Assembly (NCBI GenBank): GCA_026401035.1
Contig: JAPLNR010000069.1
Coordinates: 44-64,043, forward strand
DNA length: 64,000 nt
Origin: Planctomycetia bacterium
GTDB lineage: Bacteria > Planctomycetota > Planctomycetia > Pirellulales > UBA1268
Direction of reading: 5' to 3'
In this document: one piece after another, positions 25,342-34,029 of the stretch
Numbering within the stretch: position 1 is the first letter of the stretch
Layout of the letters: every line of letters starts with the position of its first letter
Program-made: the position numbers and the translations under genes
Notes under the pieces: generated by a model
The model's database searches: none
What the model was told of the DNA's origin: nothing
The model's input: the letters and a program-made list of their open reading frames with translations, nothing else

Positions 25342-25755
25342 TCAGGGGCGGATCGCCACTCCAAGGGCCTCCCCCAGGCGAATCCAATCCCGGTGCCCAG
25401 AATCGACGACCCATCGCAGCACGCTCATGTCGAGCCGATCGTACTGGTGGATGGCAACGTTGCGGAAACCCACCATCCCGTGGAGCGATTTCGCCAGCGA
25501 TTCGTCGATAAGACCTGCCCGCTGCAAAAGAGAGAAGGCGTCAGACTTGCTCTGCGGAACGCCGAGGTGTCGTTCCGCAACGACGTGCATCGCCATGTCG
25601 ATCGCGGCCTGACAGCCCCGTTCAATGTTGAGCGTGAGAGCGTCGACGTGCGTGAAGTTGTCGAGACCCGGGCAGGATCGCACCTCTTCGGCAATCCGTC
25701 GCACGCACCTCTCGATGATCGCTGCCTTATTGAGCAGGATGTCGTCAGGCGGCAT
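25342..25755 (-). CDS. hepT: HEPN (DUF86) RNase toxin, HepT type
   Basis: RX4HXY motif GFRNVAIHQY; LNIERGCQAAIDMAMH; lies directly downstream of an MNT gene. Confidence 0.88.
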   Translation of the reverse strand: MPPDDILLNKAAIIERCVRRIAEEVRSCPGLDNFTHVDALTLNIERGCQAAIDMAMHVVAERHLGVPQSKSDAFSLLQRAGLIDESLAKSLHGMVGFRNVAIHQYDRLDMSVLRWVVDSGHRDWIRLGEALGVAIRP

Positions 25756-26149
25756 ACGCGTGAAGCACCTCTCGCCGCGCTTCCTGGAGCGACGCATACA
25801 TGGAGAGGGTGTACATCTCAAACTGCGCCGTGACGAGATGGTCCCGTTCAAAGACGAGCCTGCCGCCAGCCACTGCCTCCTTGGCATACACGAGGTTGGC
25901 CAAGGACAAGCTGCCAAGATCCACATGACGCCCCACGATCGAGGCGAGTTCCGCAGCCAAGGCCAACCTTTCCTGGGCTGCAAGAGGCCGGCCAGGATGG
26001 GGCAGCACAGCGATGTCCACGTCACTGTCCAAACGCAAGCGGCCTTCGACCGCAGAACCGAGAAGGTAAGCGGCAGACACGAAGGGCCGGCTGCGCAGAT
26101 GCGCCGCAACGGCTGACAACACGTTTTCCGCAATCGCCGGCTCGCTCAT
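25745..26149 (-). CDS. mntA: Minimal nucleotidyltransferase antitoxin, MntA type
   Basis: GSX10DXD motif LGSAVEGRLRLDSDVDIAV; GRHVDL; overlaps the HEPN start. Confidence 0.88.
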   Translation of the reverse strand: MSEPAIAENVLSAVAAHLRSRPFVSAAYLLGSAVEGRLRLDSDVDIAVLPHPGRPLAAQERLALAAELASIVGRHVDLGSLSLANLVYAKEAVAGGRLVFERDHLVTAQFEMYTLSMYASLQEARREVLHAYAA

Positions 26150-26514
26150 GGATCCACGCATGTTCCACAGGTCACGGGTTCCCTCAAGGATACTCTGATG
26201 GCACCCACCCCGTGAAGAAACGTCAGCCAAAAAGGTGACCGCCACCAAAAACAGGCACCCTGCGTAGGTCGATCCGTCACAGTACCCACAGCTTGTGGCG
26301 GGCACCGCCTTCCCCCTGGCCAATTCGACCTGCAACTGGCGGCGAAGAAGGAGCCCAGGAAGTCGCGTGATTGACGGCCCGCCCGGCCTGCCTTTCGGGA
26401 TGCTGTCCATGCGTGCCATGCCTGTCATGCGTGTCGCCGCCGCTGGGTCGGTCGTCGCTCCCAACATGCCTGATTACGAGCTCGAGGTGTGGCTGCTGAT
26501 CCGACGGTGACGTG

Positions 26515-29500
26515 TCAGGGAGGGGCATCGCCAAAACTGTACGTCGGCAGGTGCCGGTAGGGCACTTCCAACGTGAGCAGATGGAGCGCGGTCACGTAGA
26601 GTCGCCCGCCGTAGGGGCCCCAGCGATCGGGCGTCGGTCCCAGTGGATCCCAGCTGCCAGCCCGCGGTCCCGCCGTTTCCTGGTGGGTGGCGAGGGTCTT
26701 GCCCAGGCTGTCGTACCAGCTGTCCCATTCCTCTCCGCCGGTGTGCACGAGCACCTGGGACATGTAGTACCAAAGATAGCAGTCGCGGATTTTTTCATTC
26801 GGGCTGCCGTAGGTCGGCCGCATGGCGGCCAGGGCATGTCCATTCTCGACGACGCGGTCATCGGTGCTCTTCCAGCCGGTGTGCAGCCGCATCAGGGTGC
26901 CGAGCGCGGTCATGCAGGCCGTCGACATTTCAGACGGACGCTGCTCGGGCTTGCGGGCGTTGTAATGAAACCGGGCCAGTTTGTTTTTCACGGCGGCGGA
27001 CGGCGGCGCGATCAGCGACGCATCGAGCAGCGACCGCACGCCGTCGAGCGTGCGCTGTTCGACCGGCACCCTGGCCAGTTGCCCCGACCGCAGCGCCACG
27101 AGCATCCAGCCGCTCACCGAGAGATCGGCATCGCTGCGCGGCGTGTACCGCCAGCCGCCACGTTCCGGGTGCTGGCTGTCGGAGATGAAGCCGCAGGCGC
27201 GGGCGGCAGCCGGGCGGATGAGGTCGTCGCCCGTCATGCCGACGGCCTCGCACAGCGCCATCGTCGCGATCCCGTGGCTGTAGAGCCAGGCGCAACTGTT
27301 GGAAAGTTGGTCGGCGGGAGCATAGAGATCGCCATCGGCTTTCTGCACCGCCAGCAGGAATTCAAGTCCGCGGCGGACGGTGTCGCGGTGTTTGCCGGCA
27401 AAATGGTCGTGGCCCGCGCCGAGAAAGCTCAAGAGGGCGAGGCCCGTCGCGGCCGTGTCGGAGGCCAGTTTGGGGGCGGCCTCGCCGGCGGCGCCGGGAT
27501 AGGCGGCGAGGCTCCAGCGTCCGTCCGGCTGCTGGGCCCGCCGGAGGAAATCGAGGCCGCGGTCGACCATGCCATCGGTCTTCTCCGTCTCCGCGGTGCG
27601 GCGCTCCTTCGAACGTTTGACGAATGGCTCGGCAATCTCCCGCACACGGCCCTCGACGGGCAGCACGAACGCCGTCGCGCGGGGCAAGGTGGCGGCTGGC
27701 GCGAGGGGAACGTCGTCCGTGGAGGGGGACAGGCCGCGGCGCGATCCCGCCGAGGTCATGGCGACCGCCGGGGCGACGGCGATCATGCCGTCGGTGGAAA
27801 GGGTGTCGTCCGCTTCGCTCTGGGCATTCGTCGCGGCAGCTTCTGCACCGCCCCGCGCATCGGCCAGCCCGCGGGCACCACGCGAGGCGAGCGACCGCGG
27901 TTGCGGGCTCACGCGGGCGGTCGTGTCAGCGGCATCGCCGTTCTCCGGACCGCGTCCATCGGCTGCCGATCCCCCGCCATCGTTGGCACCCGCAGTGTCG
28001 GCGAGGAGCTCGGCTCGACCGTTTTCGGTGCCGCCGTCGGCGGTGGTGATCGCGGCCCGGATCGGCGCGGCGGGTGCACCACCGACTCCCGCATCCGCCT
28101 CGCTTCCTGCTCCGTCTTCTTCCTCGCTTGCGTTCAGGGAAGCGGAGTCATCCCGCTGAGGCCGCGTTCCCCGCTCGAGTCCGATCGCTGCACCGGCCGG
28201 CCGACCAGCCGCAATCATGCTGCCAGCACTCTCCACCGCTCCTTCCATGGCCTCGGCATCGTGGCCGCTGTCGGTCGACGGGCGGCTGCCCACGGAGGCT
28301 GAACCAGCCGCACGACCGCGGGCTGGGCGGCCACCACGCGGGCCGGGCCGCAGGTTCGTGAGTCCGGCGCCGTCAGCGGCCGTCTCTCCTGGCACAAAGC
28401 CGCCTGTACCCCCTGGCCCGGCAGGCAGCGGAACAGCGTCGGTTGCGCCGGCCGCCATGCCCGCGGATGCCACGCTCGATCTGGCCAGCGCTGTGGGAGA
28501 GCCGCCGAACAGGGCCGATGCGCCGGACAACGGTGCGACCTTCGGAACGCGGCTGACCGCTGCGACGGCCTGCGGCGTGGGAGCCAACGGAGGTGCATCC
28601 GCATCATTATCATTGTCAGCCACGGCATCGGCGGGGCGGGCGGATGTTGCAGCCTGCGCTGAAGCTTTGGCGGAAGCGAGCCGCCGTTCGCTTGGCTGTC
28701 GCGTGGGCCGCACCTGCGGCTGCGTCGGGGCGTTGGCCGCCTGCGTTGGCGCTGTGGTGATCATCTCGGCCAGCACGGTCGGCGTGGCTCCGGCATCGAG
28801 CGTTGTCTGCCGTCGGGCGAGATTCGTGACTCGTGGAGCCGAGATGGGCCGGGACGGTTCACGGCGGGGCGTGGGCGTGGTGCCTGGTCCGATCGTCCGC
28901 GGCGGTGCTGTCTCCAGCATGGCCACCTCCCTGGGCACGCCCGCGCTTGCTGACCTCGTGACACGTTCGCCCGCGCCGGCCCGGGGCGGCTTGCCCTTCG
29001 ACGCCGCCGGCCGTGGCGATTTGGCCGCCGGGTCCGCTATCGGCTTGGCGGCCAGCAGATCTGCCTTCGCCTGCTGATCCACTTTGAGGGCGGGCTGCGT
29101 GTCGAGCTCTCGGCGATCGAGCTGCTCTGCGGCAGCGAGGCTTTTGTCGCGGGGAGCGGAGGATCGTTTGGGCAACTGTGCTACGGGCTTTGCCTGCTCC
29201 GTCGCTTCCGCCCCCTGTGCCGGCGAGACAGTCCGCGAGGCCTTGGCTGTGTCCGGTTTTCGGCTGTCGGCCGGCGGCCGCCTGACGGGAATCTCGAGCG
29301 CGAGCGGTTTTTCGTGCGCCGGCGCGTCGTCCCCGGACTTTGACACTTCCAGAGGAAAGTCGGCGGCCAGCTTCGGCTTGAAGATGTTCTTCATGCCGGA
29401 GGGGTTGCCGGGGGACGGCGCGGGAAGGATGCCGAGGCTCGTCGTGGCGAGGCCGCCCGCGAGCAGCGCATGCAGCAGCAGGCTCAGGAGCGTGGCGACC

Positions 29501-29577
29501 TGCAGGCTCACCCGCTGTTTACGGCGCACCTCGAGCCCGTCGGAAGAAGAGGCGGCGGGTGTCGGGAGCCTAGTCAT
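26515..29577 (-). CDS. TonB/TolA-like membrane-anchored protein with C-terminal prenyltransferase/squalene-oxidase-repeat (alpha/alpha barrel) domain
   Basis: Single N-terminal TM with SLLLHALLAGGLATTS, roughly 600-aa Pro/Ala-rich linker, then QW-type repeats (GLDFLRRAQQPDGRW, GLEFLLAVQKADG, SQHPERGGWRY, GSWDP). Start at 29577 or 29628. Confidence 0.75.
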   Translation of the reverse strand: MTRLPTPAASSSDGLEVRRKQRVSLQVATLLSLLLHALLAGGLATTSLGILPAPSPGNPSGMKNIFKPKLAADFPLEVSKSGDDAPAHEKPLALEIPVRRPPADSRKPDTAKASRTVSPAQGAEATEQAKPVAQLPKRSSAPRDKSLAAAEQLDRRELDTQPALKVDQQAKADLLAAKPIADPAAKSPRPAASKGKPPRAGAGERVTRSASAGVPREVAMLETAPPRTIGPGTTPTPRREPSRPISAPRVTNLARRQTTLDAGATPTVLAEMITTAPTQAANAPTQPQVRPTRQPSERRLASAKASAQAATSARPADAVADNDNDADAPPLAPTPQAVAAVSRVPKVAPLSGASALFGGSPTALARSSVASAGMAAGATDAVPLPAGPGGTGGFVPGETAADGAGLTNLRPGPRGGRPARGRAAGSASVGSRPSTDSGHDAEAMEGAVESAGSMIAAGRPAGAAIGLERGTRPQRDDSASLNASEEEDGAGSEADAGVGGAPAAPIRAAITTADGGTENGRAELLADTAGANDGGGSAADGRGPENGDAADTTARVSPQPRSLASRGARGLADARGGAEAAATNAQSEADDTLSTDGMIAVAPAVAMTSAGSRRGLSPSTDDVPLAPAATLPRATAFVLPVEGRVREIAEPFVKRSKERRTAETEKTDGMVDRGLDFLRRAQQPDGRWSLAAYPGAAGEAAPKLASDTAATGLALLSFLGAGHDHFAGKHRDTVRRGLEFLLAVQKADGDLYAPADQLSNSCAWLYSHGIATMALCEAVGMTGDDLIRPAAARACGFISDSQHPERGGWRYTPRSDADLSVSGWMLVALRSGQLARVPVEQRTLDGVRSLLDASLIAPPSAAVKNKLARFHYNARKPEQRPSEMSTACMTALGTLMRLHTGWKSTDDRVVENGHALAAMRPTYGSPNEKIRDCYLWYYMSQVLVHTGGEEWDSWYDSLGKTLATHQETAGPRAGSWDPLGPTPDRWGPYGGRLYVTALHLLTLEVPYRHLPTYSFGDAPP

Positions 29578-29986
29578 CGCTGGCGGATTGAACCTGGTAG
29601 TCGTCGATGCCCGCCTGAACACAGGCATTCATTGCGCCGACGACGAACTTGTGCTGCACGTTCTCATCGGCCCGCACGATCACCTTCTGTCCCTGTGGAT
29701 TGTCGGCTGCCGCCTGCTTGAGCCGGGACGTCAGGTCTACCAGGGTGATCGGCTTGGCGCCGGCGAAGTAGGACCCCTGGCGGTCGATGCTGATGATGAA
29801 CTCGGCGGGCTGGCTCGTGAGCGGCTTGGCGGCGCTCGCCTTGGGAAGGACCACGTCGATGGAGCGGTCGGCTTCCTCGAGCTTGCTGGCCACGAGAAAG
29901 AAGATCATCAGTAAAAAGACGATGTCGATCATGGGCGTCAGCTCGAGCCCGCTGCCGAGCCGTCCCTTGTCGATCCGCACGCTCAT
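29570..29986 (-). CDS. exbD: ExbD/TolR family protein
   Basis: LTPMIDIVFLLMIFF with the conserved TM Asp; VIVRADENV. Confidence 0.92.
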   Translation of the reverse strand: MSVRIDKGRLGSGLELTPMIDIVFLLMIFFLVASKLEEADRSIDVVLPKASAAKPLTSQPAEFIISIDRQGSYFAGAKPITLVDLTSRLKQAAADNPQGQKVIVRADENVQHKFVVGAMNACVQAGIDDYQVQSASDD

Positions 29987-30699
29987 GGCTTTCGTCCCTG
30001 GGCCGGGTGCGCGGGCGTGACCGGTGGCTCGGCGGCTAGCTGCGCGGGCGTGACCCGGCCCTTGTTTTCGTATCGCTCCAACTGCGGCAGCAGTCCACCG
30101 ACGACCTCATCGACGCGGCGAAAGCCGGCGAGGATGCGGCCCTCGAGGAAGTGGGCGATCATCGATGCCGGGATCGCGACGCACAGCCCGGCGAAGGTCG
30201 TGATCAGGGCCACGTAAATCCCCTGTGCGAGTTCGGCGGCGCGGTTGGCTCCGGCCTGGAGATTGGCCGTGGTGTAGAAAGCGAGAATCATGCCCTGCAC
30301 CGTGCCGAGCAGCCCCAACAGCGGCGTCACCGAGACGGCGAGGCTGATTGGCCGGATGTTGGCGTAGAGCTTCGAGGCCTCCCGCTCTTTGGCGGCGTCG
30401 ACGGCATGCTCCACCTCCGGCAGCGGTCGGCCAAGTTTTTCCAGCATCGCCTTGATCACGTCGGACAGGACCGACGGATGCTCCTGGGCAAGGCGATAGA
30501 CCTTGCGCGGGTCGAACGGTCCCTCCGGGGGAAGTTTGCCCAGGGCATCGAGAAGCGGACGGGGCACGAACCGGCTGCGCCGCAGCGCCCAGAGCCGCTC
30601 GATGCCGAACGCAACCACCACCACCGACATGGCCACGATCGGCCACATCAGGAAACCGCCGGCGAGGAAAAGTTCCCACAGCGATTGGATATTGTTCAT
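29983..30699 (-). CDS. exbB: MotA/TolQ/ExbB proton channel protein
   Basis: GGFLMWPI, PLLGLLGTVQGMI, GIYVALITTFAGLCVAIP; ATG overlaps the TPR stop. Confidence 0.92.
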   Translation of the reverse strand: MNNIQSLWELFLAGGFLMWPIVAMSVVVVAFGIERLWALRRSRFVPRPLLDALGKLPPEGPFDPRKVYRLAQEHPSVLSDVIKAMLEKLGRPLPEVEHAVDAAKEREASKLYANIRPISLAVSVTPLLGLLGTVQGMILAFYTTANLQAGANRAAELAQGIYVALITTFAGLCVAIPASMIAHFLEGRILAGFRRVDEVVGGLLPQLERYENKGRVTPAQLAAEPPVTPAHPAQGRKP

Positions 30700-33600
30700 G
30701 AGGCCTGTTTTCGTGAAGGTGCGTCGGCTGGCTCGAGGGCTTCGAGTCGTTTCCGCGCCGCGGGGGTCTGCTGGGAATCGGGATAGCGGTCCACCATCTC
30801 GGCGTAGAGTTTCGCCGCCTGCTCCGGCTTGCCGAGCACCTCGAAGCACCGTGCCGCCTCAAACGTGGCCTGCGCCTGCCAGGGATGGAATGCGATTGGG
30901 GCCTGCTGCTCGCCGAAACCGTAGGCCACCTTGAAGAAGGCTTTGATCGCATCCTTGTGATTGCCCTGCTCGAAGAGCACCTCGCCCTCCATGAGGCGGC
31001 TGCGGGCCGCCAGTTCCGAGCGGCCGCTGTCGGCCAACGCCCGGTATGCCGCCAGCGCCCGGTCGAGTTGCCCGAGGTTCTGCTGCGCCCAGGCGGCCGC
31101 ATAACGCGCCTGGCCGGCGTAGGGCGACTGCGGCTGTGTCGTTGCCAGTTGTTCGGCAAACGTCAGGCTCTCCTGCCACTGCTTTGTCTTGGCCGCGCAC
31201 TCGCTGGCCCGGATCAGAGCGAGCCCGCGCAGATCGTCCGATGACAGGGCAGCGGGCGTGGCGAGGGCGGCAGCCAGCGCCTTGGCTGCCTCGGCATGCT
31301 GTCCGGTCTGGAACAGCGATTCGCCGAGCATCGCCCGCGCGTCGGCGGCGAGGGCGCCTGTCGGATCCGCAGCCACCTGTTCGGCAAAGGCCTTGGCTGC
31401 TGCGGCATGATCCTTCCGCATCGAGTGGGACCAGCCGAGCTTGTGACGGGCCTGTTCGAGAAGTTCCCGCGAATCCTTCCGGCTGGTCGCAGCTGCGACC
31501 GCCGCAGCATAAGCCTGCGCGGCCTCATCCCAGGCCTTGGCATCGAACCGGGCTTCGCCGATTTCCAGCCAGGCCGCGCCCACGCGGCTGCTTCCGGGGA
31601 ATTTCTCCACCAGCCGGCGAAATGTTTTTTCGGCATCGTCCCGCGTGCCGGCGAGCGACTGGGCCAGCGCCATTTCGAACACTGCGCGGTCGGCCGCTGG
31701 AAACGACGGCTGCTCATCGAGCAGCGTCTGAAACGTCCGCACGGCGTCGGGATAGCGCTGCGCACCGACGAGGCAGAGTCCCGCCAACATGCGGGCCTCG
31801 CCGGCTGCCGTCTCGTTGCCTTTGGCTGCGGCGGGCTTCGCGACTTTCAGAAACTGCTCCGCGTCGGCCAGCCCCCCGGAAAAATCCCCACGCCGTTGCC
31901 GGGCGTCGCCGCGGGCCAAGAGCGCCGAGGAGGCAGCGGTCGAGTCGGGGTAGGAGTCGATGAGATCGGTCCAGGCCGCAATCGCCTCCGGCAGTCGTCC
32001 TTTGGCCTCATGGCACCAGCCCGTTGCCAGAACCGCCCACGGCGCGCGCGTGCCCTTCGGTTTCGTAACGCGGGCCTTGGCATAGGCCGTGATCGCCTCG
32101 TCGAAGCGGCCGGCATCCTGACGGAGTTGGCCGAGCCGATACCAGGCCACGTCGGCCAGCGGCCACTCCGGAAACTCCTTGACCAGTTTCTCCGCCAGCT
32201 CGAGCGCGGCCGCTTTGTCGCCCGCCTCGCGGCGGGCACGCACGCCCAGCAGCAGCGCCTCGTTGCGACGCGGCCACGCGGCATGCTGTTGCTCCAGGAC
32301 CGCGAGCACCTTGACCGCCGCTGGCTGTTGGTTGAGCTCCACGAGCGCGGTGGCGTCGAGGAGCAGGGCCTCGGCCGCAGCATCACCCTTGAGCAAGGGG
32401 GCCGAGGCGGAGAGCACGTCGTGCGTTTTCTGCCACTGCCTGGCGGCGGCGAGCGCCACTCCCTCGCGCAGTTGCCACGTGGCCCGCTGCGGTGCGGTGG
32501 CATGGCCTGCGATCAACTCGCGATAGGCCTCCGCCGCGGCGGCAGGCTTGCCCTGCGCGAGCAGGGCTTCGGCGCGGATCGCCTTGACATCGAGAAGCCG
32601 CTGGCCCACTTCCGCATCGCCGCAGGTCTGCAAAAACGCCTCGGCCGTGGCGAACGCTTCGGCGGGCTTGCCCTGCTCGAGGAGGGCAAGCGCCGTCATC
32701 GAGCGGGCCGCGAGCACGGTTTGCTTTTCATTCGGGTAGCGTTCGATGATCGCCGCGTAGGCGGCCGCCGCCTCTCCCTTGCGGGCCGGGATTTCCCACA
32801 GCGCATCGGCGCGGTCGAGTTCCAGTCTCGCGAGTCGGGTGTCGTCGCGGTCGGGCTTGCCAGTGAGCGCGGCGATCGCCCGGGTCGTGATATCGACCGC
32901 CCGTGCCGGCTGTTTGGCGTCGAGTTCGAGGAGGGCGAGGCTGTGGGCGGCATCGGCGGCCACGGCACCGCCTGCCGCGGCGGCCTGTTCGAGCAGTGGC
33001 CGTGCCTTGTCGAGGTTTCCTGCCTCCACGTAGGCGCGGCCGGCGGATGCAGCGGCCCGGCCTGCCTGCGGTGCGGCTGGATGCCGCGTGGCGAGCGTAC
33101 CGAAGGCCTCGGCTGCGCCCACCCAGTTTTTCTGAGACCAGCGGGCGGAGCCGAGCCGCTCCAGCGCGTCCACGGCGCGCGGTCCCTTGCCCGCCGCCAG
33201 CGGCACGAGGATCCGTTCGGCGTCGGCCGGAGCACCGGCGGCGAGCGCCGCGTCGGCCCGCCAGACCGCCACGTCGTCGGTGAGTTTGTGATTGGGAAAC
33301 GATTCGGCAAATCGCCTGAGCGTGACTGCGGCTGCGGCGGGCTGCTTGAGCTCCGCCTGCCCGACGCCTAACGCGTAGAGCACTTCCGGTAGCCGCGGTG
33401 AGGAGGCGTGGTCACGGACAAACCGCTGCCAGGCCTCGATGGCGGGCTCGCGCTTGCCCGCCTGCCACAGCGATTCGCCGAGGAAGAAGAGCGCGTCGGC
33501 CGTCTGCGGCTGACCGGGGCTCTTCTCCAGGAATTCGCGGAGGCTGTCTGCCGCCGCCTCGTAGGCGGCCGGCGCCGGCTGATTCTGGGCCGCCTGGAAG

Positions 33601-33971
33601 GCGCCGCGGCCGAGTTCCCATCTGGCCAGCGCGATAGTGGCGGCGTCGGACTTGCTATCGACGACCGCACGAAACGTCTGTGCGGCGGCGGGCCAATCGC
33701 CGTTCTTCAACTGGCAGATCCCGAGGTAGTAGCGGCCTTTGAGGGCAAGCGGGTCGGCGGGGTGATCGGTGACGAGGGCGGCCCACTCCTCGCCGGCCAA
33801 ATCCCAGGCCTCGCGATTCTGCAGCGCCGCGGCCGACGCATAAGCCGCCCGGGCGGCGTCACTCGATCCGGGAGTTTCGGCAGCCGGTGCGATCATCGCT
33901 GCGGCGGCATGCAGCGCAAAGACGGAGGCTGCCGCCACTGACCAGCGGGGCATCGTGGTTCGTATGATCAT
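30696..33971 (-). CDS. Large secreted tetratricopeptide-repeat protein
   Basis: Signal peptide, many TPR pairs ending in F/YP-x-S; CpoB-like C-terminus (YAEMVDRYPDSQQTPAARKRL). Start uncertain (33953-33977). Confidence 0.88.
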   Translation of the reverse strand: MIIRTTMPRWSVAAASVFALHAAAAMIAPAAETPGSSDAARAAYASAAALQNREAWDLAGEEWAALVTDHPADPLALKGRYYLGICQLKNGDWPAAAQTFRAVVDSKSDAATIALARWELGRGAFQAAQNQPAPAAYEAAADSLREFLEKSPGQPQTADALFFLGESLWQAGKREPAIEAWQRFVRDHASSPRLPEVLYALGVGQAELKQPAAAAVTLRRFAESFPNHKLTDDVAVWRADAALAAGAPADAERILVPLAAGKGPRAVDALERLGSARWSQKNWVGAAEAFGTLATRHPAAPQAGRAAASAGRAYVEAGNLDKARPLLEQAAAAGGAVAADAAHSLALLELDAKQPARAVDITTRAIAALTGKPDRDDTRLARLELDRADALWEIPARKGEAAAAYAAIIERYPNEKQTVLAARSMTALALLEQGKPAEAFATAEAFLQTCGDAEVGQRLLDVKAIRAEALLAQGKPAAAAEAYRELIAGHATAPQRATWQLREGVALAAARQWQKTHDVLSASAPLLKGDAAAEALLLDATALVELNQQPAAVKVLAVLEQQHAAWPRRNEALLLGVRARREAGDKAAALELAEKLVKEFPEWPLADVAWYRLGQLRQDAGRFDEAITAYAKARVTKPKGTRAPWAVLATGWCHEAKGRLPEAIAAWTDLIDSYPDSTAASSALLARGDARQRRGDFSGGLADAEQFLKVAKPAAAKGNETAAGEARMLAGLCLVGAQRYPDAVRTFQTLLDEQPSFPAADRAVFEMALAQSLAGTRDDAEKTFRRLVEKFPGSSRVGAAWLEIGEARFDAKAWDEAAQAYAAAVAAATSRKDSRELLEQARHKLGWSHSMRKDHAAAAKAFAEQVAADPTGALAADARAMLGESLFQTGQHAEAAKALAAALATPAALSSDDLRGLALIRASECAAKTKQWQESLTFAEQLATTQPQSPYAGQARYAAAWAQQNLGQLDRALAAYRALADSGRSELAARSRLMEGEVLFEQGNHKDAIKAFFKVAYGFGEQQAPIAFHPWQAQATFEAARCFEVLGKPEQAAKLYAEMVDRYPDSQQTPAARKRLEALEPADAPSRKQAS

Positions 33972-34029
33972 GCCCAATCGCTCCCGCAGGTTGCGTGGAC
34001 CGTCTGTCCACGCAGTTCACCACCGCTCG

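Follow-up and report, generated by a model that had tools for sequence, protein, structure and literature searches.

The closest described relatives of the system reported here are the vWA-headed 'motor-driven force transducers' of the Planctomycetes, Verrucomicrobia and Chlamydiae (PVC) and other bacteria (Williams-Jones et al. 2025, Mol Biol Evol; PMC12204202). According to the main text of that paper, the gene of the PVC transducer is located downstream of a tetratricopeptide repeat (TPR) gene and tolQ/tolR-like genes, and its role as a force transducer is a proposal there. The same text describes a 'motor box' for TolA and TonB. For the TonB-ExbBD complex of E. coli, the account of a cryo-electron microscopy structure (10.1101/2024.10.08.617233) states that Ser16 and His20 of TonB contact ExbB, that the contact pair on ExbB is Ser34/Trp38, and that the Leu and the second Ser of the TonB helix are less conserved.

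We analyzed a 64,000-nucleotide stretch of DNA (the window) from contig JAPLNR010000069.1 of a Planctomycetia bacterium (assembly GCA_026401035.1). The minus strand of the window carries four consecutive open reading frames (ORFs) encoding a TPR protein, ExbB, ExbD and a protein of 1020 amino acids. An earlier note made from the sequence of this window proposed that the genes form a motor operon driven by the proton motive force (PMF), in which the TonB-like subunit ends in a barrel instead of a TonB_C domain. The four-gene operon and its features as described in that note were confirmed, and the comparative part of the proposal was borne out by synteny, by the Ser/His helix and by the predicted topology. 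Judging from the sequences, the operon probably encodes a PMF-driven machine of the Ton/Tol type, with the 1020-amino-acid protein as its force transducer carrying an exchanged head. The system is not wholly undescribed, as the same cassette logic was published in 2025 with vWA heads in the main text of PMC12204202.

The operon and its putative force transducer

The four genes and the parts of the putative transducer are arranged as follows, in the direction of transcription:

30696..33977, minus strand: TPR gene, first in the operon, 1093 amino acids with a hydrophobic N-terminus (ORF, Pfam, NCBIfam)
29983..30699, minus strand: exbB/tolQ-like gene, 238 amino acids from the ATG, 'MNNIQ' (PF01618, MotA_ExbB, 1.6e-23)
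29570..29986, minus strand: exbD/tolR-like gene, 138 amino acids (PF02472, 1.6e-27)
26515..29577, minus strand: TonB/TolA-like putative transducer gene with barrel head, 1020 amino acids from the ATG, 'MTRLPT' (ORF; behind exbD)
29437..29484, minus strand: S-x3-H-x6-L-x3-S stretch of the single transmembrane helix, S32, H36, L43 and S47 (direct reading)
29287..29379, minus strand: conserved segment after the helix (KPKLAADFPLEVSKS...AHEKPLALEIP), candidate 'motor box' (kept in close orthologues)
27679..29427, minus strand: low-complexity linker, 583 amino acids, Ala 21%, Pro 11%, Gly 10% (composition)
26551..27630, minus strand: C-terminal (alpha/alpha)6 barrel or toroid with QW-type repeats (predicted model and structural matches)

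The start of exbB overlaps the stop of the TPR gene by 4 nt, the start of exbD overlaps the stop of exbB by another 4 nt, and the ATG of the transducer gene falls within the final codons of exbD (ATGACTAG). The four genes are translationally coupled, and the overlapping stop and start codons reported earlier were thus found throughout the operon. The TPR gene itself opens with a TTG at 33977. The boundary given for it before, 33971, corresponds to an in-frame ATG two codons on.

The 1020-amino-acid protein has a single hydrophobic helix, LLSLLLHALLAGGLATTSL. The residues S, H, L and S occur at offsets 0, +4, +11 and +15 over positions 29484-29437, in exact agreement with the earlier reading. 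With RRKQR ahead of the helix, the N-terminus is expected inside and the remainder of the protein outside. The predicted topology places the barrel in the periplasm. The Pro/Ala-rich linker, which had been put at about 600 residues, measures 583, and in related loci the linker ranges from 327 to 1794 amino acids with a median of 614. Some 20-60 residues beyond the helix the family has a conserved segment with the consensus 'vPDY..(12)..pDfErPVET' (alignment of 192 sequences). By analogy with the concept put forward in the main text of PMC12204202, this segment is a candidate motor box that may contact ExbD. TolA chains also matched the N-terminal part of the family profile (E 1e-5 to 9e-4), but we regard these matches as compositional, due to Ala/Pro/Lys-rich linkers, and not as homology.

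The TPR protein matched 16 TPR-type Pfam families as well as BamD and other TPR models of NCBIfam. In nine stretches it matched the NCBIfam model tol_pal_ybgF (234 bits against a cut-off of 90.1). From its hydrophobic N-terminus it may be secreted, as described earlier. ExbB scored under the NCBIfam cut-offs for TolQ (51 bits) and ExbB (34 bits). Both motor proteins remained below every NCBIfam equivalog cut-off and were marginally closer to TolQ/TolR than to ExbB/ExbD.

Conservation of helix, motor residues and gene order

A search with the barrel domain against 1.84 billion representatives recovered 11,668 proteins at E <= 0.001, with 3,201 of them at E <= 1e-30. In all 150 listed representatives, which range from 268 to 2177 amino acids, the barrel was found at the extreme C-terminus. 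A locus scan with one genome per species yielded 80 loci, all from Planctomycetota save one 3.2-kb contig labelled Chitinophagaceae. The barrel gene runs off the 5' end in nine of the 80, which leaves 71 assessable loci. An exbD gene was present upstream on the same strand in 65 of these, and in 63 of the 65 the distance between exbD and the open frame of the transducer was -465 to +297 nt; the remaining two have broken or shortened frames. Among the related loci exbB was detected in 58 and a TPR homologue, in the same position as here, in 52. Comparison thus shows the gene order to be conserved, and the synteny with exbB and exbD that the earlier note had proposed to examine holds at most loci, mostly with the TPR gene included. 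When the neighbours at 81 loci (window included) were clustered, the four operon genes were found in 81, 66, 59 and 53 loci and nothing else recurred in more than 24. The next cluster was a divergently oriented NAD-dependent sugar epimerase/dehydratase located upstream in 24 of the 81 loci, and a second TPR gene occurred downstream in 11.

Close relatives of the transducer (54-79% identity) have a single helix with S-x3-H. More distant orthologues have three transmembrane helices, of which the third bears RRxxQLAxxLSLxxH, and the N-in/C-out topology is retained. The helix position was scored with a model seeded with His-containing segments, so the following counts are biased towards His: 69 of the 80 loci could be scored, with His in 67 and Asn in 2, and the residue four positions earlier was S in 54, C in 9, A in 3 and G in 3. 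The same scoring covered 120 of the 150 representatives and gave His in 106, Asn in 10 and other residues in 4, i.e. His or Asn in 116 of 120. The 30 representatives that escaped scoring include 21 without a hydrophobic helix in the first 300 residues (fragments or lost N-termini); a plain pattern search found S-x3-[HN] in six of the other nine. The Leu position is occupied by L, A or M, and the last Ser is variable beyond close orthologues. Of the SHLS motif invoked by the earlier note, S and H are therefore kept family-wide, but the Leu and the last Ser are not.

Asn replaces His in a sub-lineage with the sequence S-L-I-I-N (loci L030 and L036; representatives including P0051, P0052, P0057 and P0066). 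The title of a paper by Swayne and Postle (2011), as it appears in the reference list of PMC8928145, states that Asn fully substitutes for His20 of TonB. Among the scored loci, the sole natural replacement is therefore the residue reported to be functional in E. coli TonB. One representative of a different build, P0040 (1100 amino acids), has three separate stretches matching the barrel query and no hydrophobic helix in the first 300 residues. From its sequence it is probably a secreted multi-barrel protein.

Comparison also shows that the motor residues are conserved. In 59 aligned ExbB sequences the pattern GG..M.P...S in the first transmembrane helix and a Thr and a Pro in a later one are conserved, and the transmembrane Asp of ExbD ('TPMIDIVF') is present in at least 90% of 66 aligned sequences. 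The conservation of the S-x3-H helix together with the gene order over dozens of loci is more than chance.

Two loci of the scan differ from the rest. The 3.2-kb contig from the Chitinophagaceae-labelled bin (L018) holds the closest public match, with 72% identity in the barrel, and its taxonomic label is probably a binning stray. At locus L027 the transducer gene is located directly behind the TPR gene with no exbB or exbD in between, an arrangement that resembles a natural deletion of the motor genes.

The home assembly, with a completeness of 94.5%, has 82 contigs totalling 3.77 Mb. TonB_C, Plug and TolB_N gave no match in this 94.5% complete genome, and the one match to the OmpA family is a 468-amino-acid frame elsewhere that is not Pal-sized. 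Four exbD genes were found in three motor loci. The genome further encodes nine barrel homologues, seven with an S-x3-H helix and two with a signal peptide alone. Since these two paralogues have only a signal peptide, the barrel domain seems to work outside the cytoplasm. The linkers of the short paralogues measure about 80-130 amino acids. None of the three VWA genes of the genome lies beside a motor locus. A scan of 11,205 genome frames with the helix model placed the seven barrel proteins on top, by construction since they were its seeds. The sole other candidate, C47:50864-53017, was rejected as an Arg-rich antisense frame.

The other barrel and motor loci of this genome vary in composition. 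A second motor-transducer operon (L013, C47:30615-38431) comprises an exbB of 351 amino acids, exbD and a barrel protein of 548 amino acids, and follows a small lipoprotein-like frame, a BON-domain protein and a 678-amino-acid protein with TPR and a thioredoxin fold. Three tandem barrel-headed S-x3-H paralogues of about 525 amino acids occur at L015 (C36:20167-25038); in two of them the N-terminal halves are nearly identical, and tandem pairs are present in other genomes of the class as well. The third motor locus (L014, C47:143072-149494) encodes a 1122-amino-acid protein without a Pfam family, a TPR protein of 399 amino acids, ExbB and two copies of ExbD. It has no adjacent transducer and resembles the published PVC cassette minus the head protein. 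The motor at L014 may be the one that the orphan barrel paralogues use.

The flanks of the operon in the window are unrelated to it, with a P-type cation ATPase gene upstream and an MNT/HepT toxin-antitoxin pair downstream. This pair (25342-26467, minus strand) consists of an overlapping nucleotidyltransferase (Polbeta/NTP_transf_2) and a HepT-like ribonuclease, directly follows the operon as an MNT/HepT-type module, and is not conserved at other loci. These neighbours agree with the earlier statement that neither tolB nor pal is adjacent.

ExbD was found in all 61 sampled genomes of the class, with 4-14 hits each, and the barrel family (E <= 1e-20) in 59 of them, with up to 7 copies. TonB_C was present in 15 of the 61 and Plug in 20, and canonical TonB is by this comparison scarce in the class. 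Of 121 genomes from the phylum, 89 had TonB_C and 103 had the barrel family, the latter in as many as 15 copies. Five loci from other genomes in the phylum search were inspected; four have S-x3-H ahead of the barrel and the fifth is a secreted form. The positions of barrel and ExbD matches were cross-tabulated for 150 of 188 barrel matches and 150 of 444 ExbD matches, so that the resulting numbers of neighbours are lower bounds. All 15 listed class copies longer than 1000 amino acids have a listed exbD at most 6 kb upstream. The 13 genomes of the same order each have one long, TPR-linked copy behind a listed exbD.

Fold of the barrel head

A Pfam scan of the complete 1020-amino-acid protein gave only a weak match to SQHop_cyclase_C (29.3 bits against a cut-off of 26.1); TonB_C (PF03544) and the TolA C-terminal domain were not matched in the whole transducer. 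The AlphaFold model of the head, covering about 360 last residues and based on an alignment of 45 sequences, has a predicted local distance difference test (pLDDT) score of 92.2, a predicted template modelling (pTM) score of 0.92 and twelve main helices. Foldseek with this model returned exclusively (alpha/alpha)6 barrels, at template modelling scores of about 0.55. The top match in VIA-align was the single-domain cyclase 8paj_A (Z 25.5, root mean square deviation 3.1, 288 aligned residues), followed by squalene-hopene cyclase 1gsz (Z 24.1) and drimenyl diphosphate synthase (Z 22.8). Cellobiose 2-epimerases, a mannose-polysaccharide hydrolase and GH76 mannanases scored Z 20-22.6. As a modelled structure, the head is certain to have the (alpha/alpha)6 barrel fold, which comparison with known structures shows. 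The terpene-cyclase-like and the sugar-acting barrels lie within 1-3 Z units of each other and are not separated by Foldseek or VIA-align, so the fold gives no function.

The family profile matched the QW-repeat region of squalene-hopene cyclase with an E-value of 3e-12. A pattern search for DxDD, DDxxD and DxD[DTE] found none of these motifs anywhere in the 1020 residues, which extends to the whole protein the earlier observation that the DxDD cyclase motif is missing. The NCBIfam cyclase models TIGR01787 and TIGR01507 scored 37.1 and 22.9 bits against cut-offs of 322.7 and 431.1, respectively. The note had also considered a cytoplasmic barrel with intact cyclase or prenyltransferase residues; what was found is a barrel predicted to be periplasmic and lacking the motifs. 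Its expectation that annotation would call the gene a squalene cyclase fits the names of the Atlas clusters, which include 'Squalene--hopene cyclase family protein' and 'prenyltransferase/squalene oxidase repeat-containing protein'. Recognition of the family as a driven component would correct this common misannotation as squalene cyclase or prenyltransferase. The barrel has 23 invariant columns across the 45 sequences, and the invariant residues include E155, D162, E382, R370, R386 and several Tyr and Trp (numbering of the 398-residue domain query). A complex prediction with TPR residues 500-1093 and the barrel gave a score of 0.00, which speaks neither for nor against contact.

Proposed mechanism, alternatives and comparison with known systems

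In the mechanism that we infer for the operon, ExbB and ExbD would form the inner-membrane motor and the 1020-amino-acid protein would be the force transducer. Its helix would dock on the outside of ExbB via the Ser/His face, in the way of the TonB and TolA helices, and the conserved segment after the helix would engage the periplasmic part of ExbD. The disordered linker of ~580 amino acids would span the periplasm. The barrel, positioned in the periplasm, would replace the C-terminal domain of TonB or TolA and grip a conserved envelope partner for pulling, which may be a glycan or part of an outer-membrane protein. The TPR protein, CpoB-like and co-transcribed, may serve as a periplasmic adaptor or scaffold. 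As for the role of such a machine, we tentatively favor the energising of outer-membrane transport or uptake in these TonB-poor bacteria, give Tol-like envelope maintenance or division a slightly lesser chance, and leave a smaller one to something else.

Several observations weigh against a force transducer of this kind. Besides the bias towards His in the helix counts, the ExbB side of the contact is only half present: the Ser of the first transmembrane helix is kept, and four residues on there is a Val and not the Trp of the E. coli pair. Neighbour clustering at the 81 loci revealed no head partner or outer-membrane partner encoded within the module. No exbD is nearby in six of the 71 assessable loci (L023, L027, L033, L057, L074 and L083). 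Most short paralogues (500-600 amino acids) are not beside a listed exbD, and at least 45 of the 150 listed barrel hits adjoin a listed exbD, the number being a lower bound. Finally, the conserved Glu, Asp, Arg and aromatic residues of the barrel might mark a catalytic instead of a binding site.

The alternative that survives best is possible, if doubtful. The operon could be the planctomycetal equivalent of Tol-Pal, with ExbB/ExbD as TolQ/TolR, the barrel protein as a TolA-like arm and the TPR protein as CpoB, acting in outer-membrane tethering and in envelope remodelling during budding or division and not in uptake. The ninefold match of the CpoB/YbgF model (234 bits) and the slightly higher scores of ExbB and ExbD on TolQ/TolR than on ExbB/ExbD models would fit such a function, as would the single long TPR-linked copy behind a listed exbD in each of the 13 same-order genomes and the presence of the module irrespective of TonB_C or Plug. 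However, the TolQ/TolR scores are far below the equivalog cut-offs, Pfam found no TolA C-terminal domain, and the gene order is unlike that of tol-pal. The home genome moreover has no TolB_N match, and its lone OmpA-family match is the 468-amino-acid frame that is not Pal-sized.

We consider it improbable that the protein is a membrane-anchored periplasmic enzyme, in which the barrel would be catalytic on a glycan or an isoprenoid lipid (hopanoid or polyprenol) and the motor would do no more than position or gate it. The fold is common to terpene cyclases (Z 22.8-25.5) and sugar-acting enzymes (Z 20-22.6), but the single barrel, where squalene cyclases have two, contains neither DxDD nor DDxxD, and the NCBIfam cyclase scores of 37 and 23 bits are far below the respective cut-offs of 322.7 and 431. 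The invariant E155, D162, E382, R370, R386 and several Tyr and Trp could be catalytic, although many of the invariant positions belong to the QW-type structural repeats. Action on sugars would agree with the sugar-nucleotide epimerase/dehydratase gene upstream in 24 of 81 loci and with the Pec_lyase hits in some Atlas clusters (18-26% of members). Yet a plain anchor would need neither a conserved Ser/His face nor a fixed place behind exbD.

That the Ser/His helix and the adjacency to the motor genes are inherited leftovers in an uncoupled protein serving as a passive periplasmic tether or spacer is very improbable: the linker is indeed very long and variable (327-1794 amino acids), and six of 71 loci have no nearby exbD, with L027 retaining the TPR gene and not exbBD, but the Ser/His face, the post-helix segment and the start/stop overlaps are kept across relatives at 40-50% barrel identity, which argues for selection on coupling.

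ExbB/ExbD motors are numerous in planctomycetes, whereas TonB proteins and TonB-dependent transporters are few or absent. A force-transducing barrel family would be a phylum-wide candidate for the driven partner and may be the usual stand-in for TonB in these bacteria. Energy-dependent polysaccharide uptake is seen in them. A possible case for comparison is MUL1 of Akkermansia, which published work likens to Sus and in which mul1A is named as a gene for mucin transport. We speculate that the toroid-headed S-x3-H proteins could be a general replacement of TonB in Planctomycetota, with various heads sharing a few ExbBD motors for the import of macromolecules such as polysaccharides without TonB-dependent transporters. 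The barrel would then act on a glycan or a putative outer-membrane gate, either as an enzyme or as a clamp operated by force. We regard this generalization as rather unlikely.

The resemblance to known systems is partial in each case. With class II terpene cyclases the protein shares the (alpha/alpha)6 barrel and the QW-type repeats; it differs from squalene cyclases in having no DxDD motif, in its single barrel as compared to two, and in being predicted to be periplasmic and tethered. Tol-Pal has in common with the operon the SHLS helix and a long domain II in TolA, and the TPR protein is a candidate counterpart of its CpoB, whereas a TolA C-terminal domain, a TolB_N match and a Pal-like small lipoprotein were not found here. 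In contrast to CpoB, the TPR protein has 1093 amino acids with nine CpoB-like stretches and is encoded first in the operon. The likeness to TonB of E. coli consists of an N-in single Ser-x3-His helix, a Pro-rich periplasmic linker and linkage to exbB and exbD. TonB paralogues furthermore show the pattern of several heads sharing fewer motors that is seen in the home genome, and the linkers of the short barrel paralogues (about 80-130 amino acids) are comparable to those of TonB. Unlike the TonB system, the home genome has no match to TonB_C or Plug, and the head is about four times larger.

A literature search for a toroid head with TonB, TolQ or ExbD found no paper, and the terms prenyl, squalene, toroid, cyclase and terpen are all absent from the main text of PMC12204202, supplements not included. 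The vWA-headed transducers, as presented in that main text, nevertheless share the build of the present protein, with a transmembrane helix bearing an SHLS-type His, a conserved segment after the helix (the motor box there), a disordered linker and a head other than TonB_C. The differences lie in the head, which in the present protein is an (alpha/alpha)6 barrel and not a vWA domain, in the single exbD where the vWA cassette has a heterologous pair, and in the linker of about 580 amino acids as compared to about 100. The anchor of TonB and TolA would accordingly be a transferable unit to which unrelated heads have been attached in the course of evolution, and the 1020-amino-acid protein is best read as a motor-driven force transducer of variant type in which the head has been exchanged.

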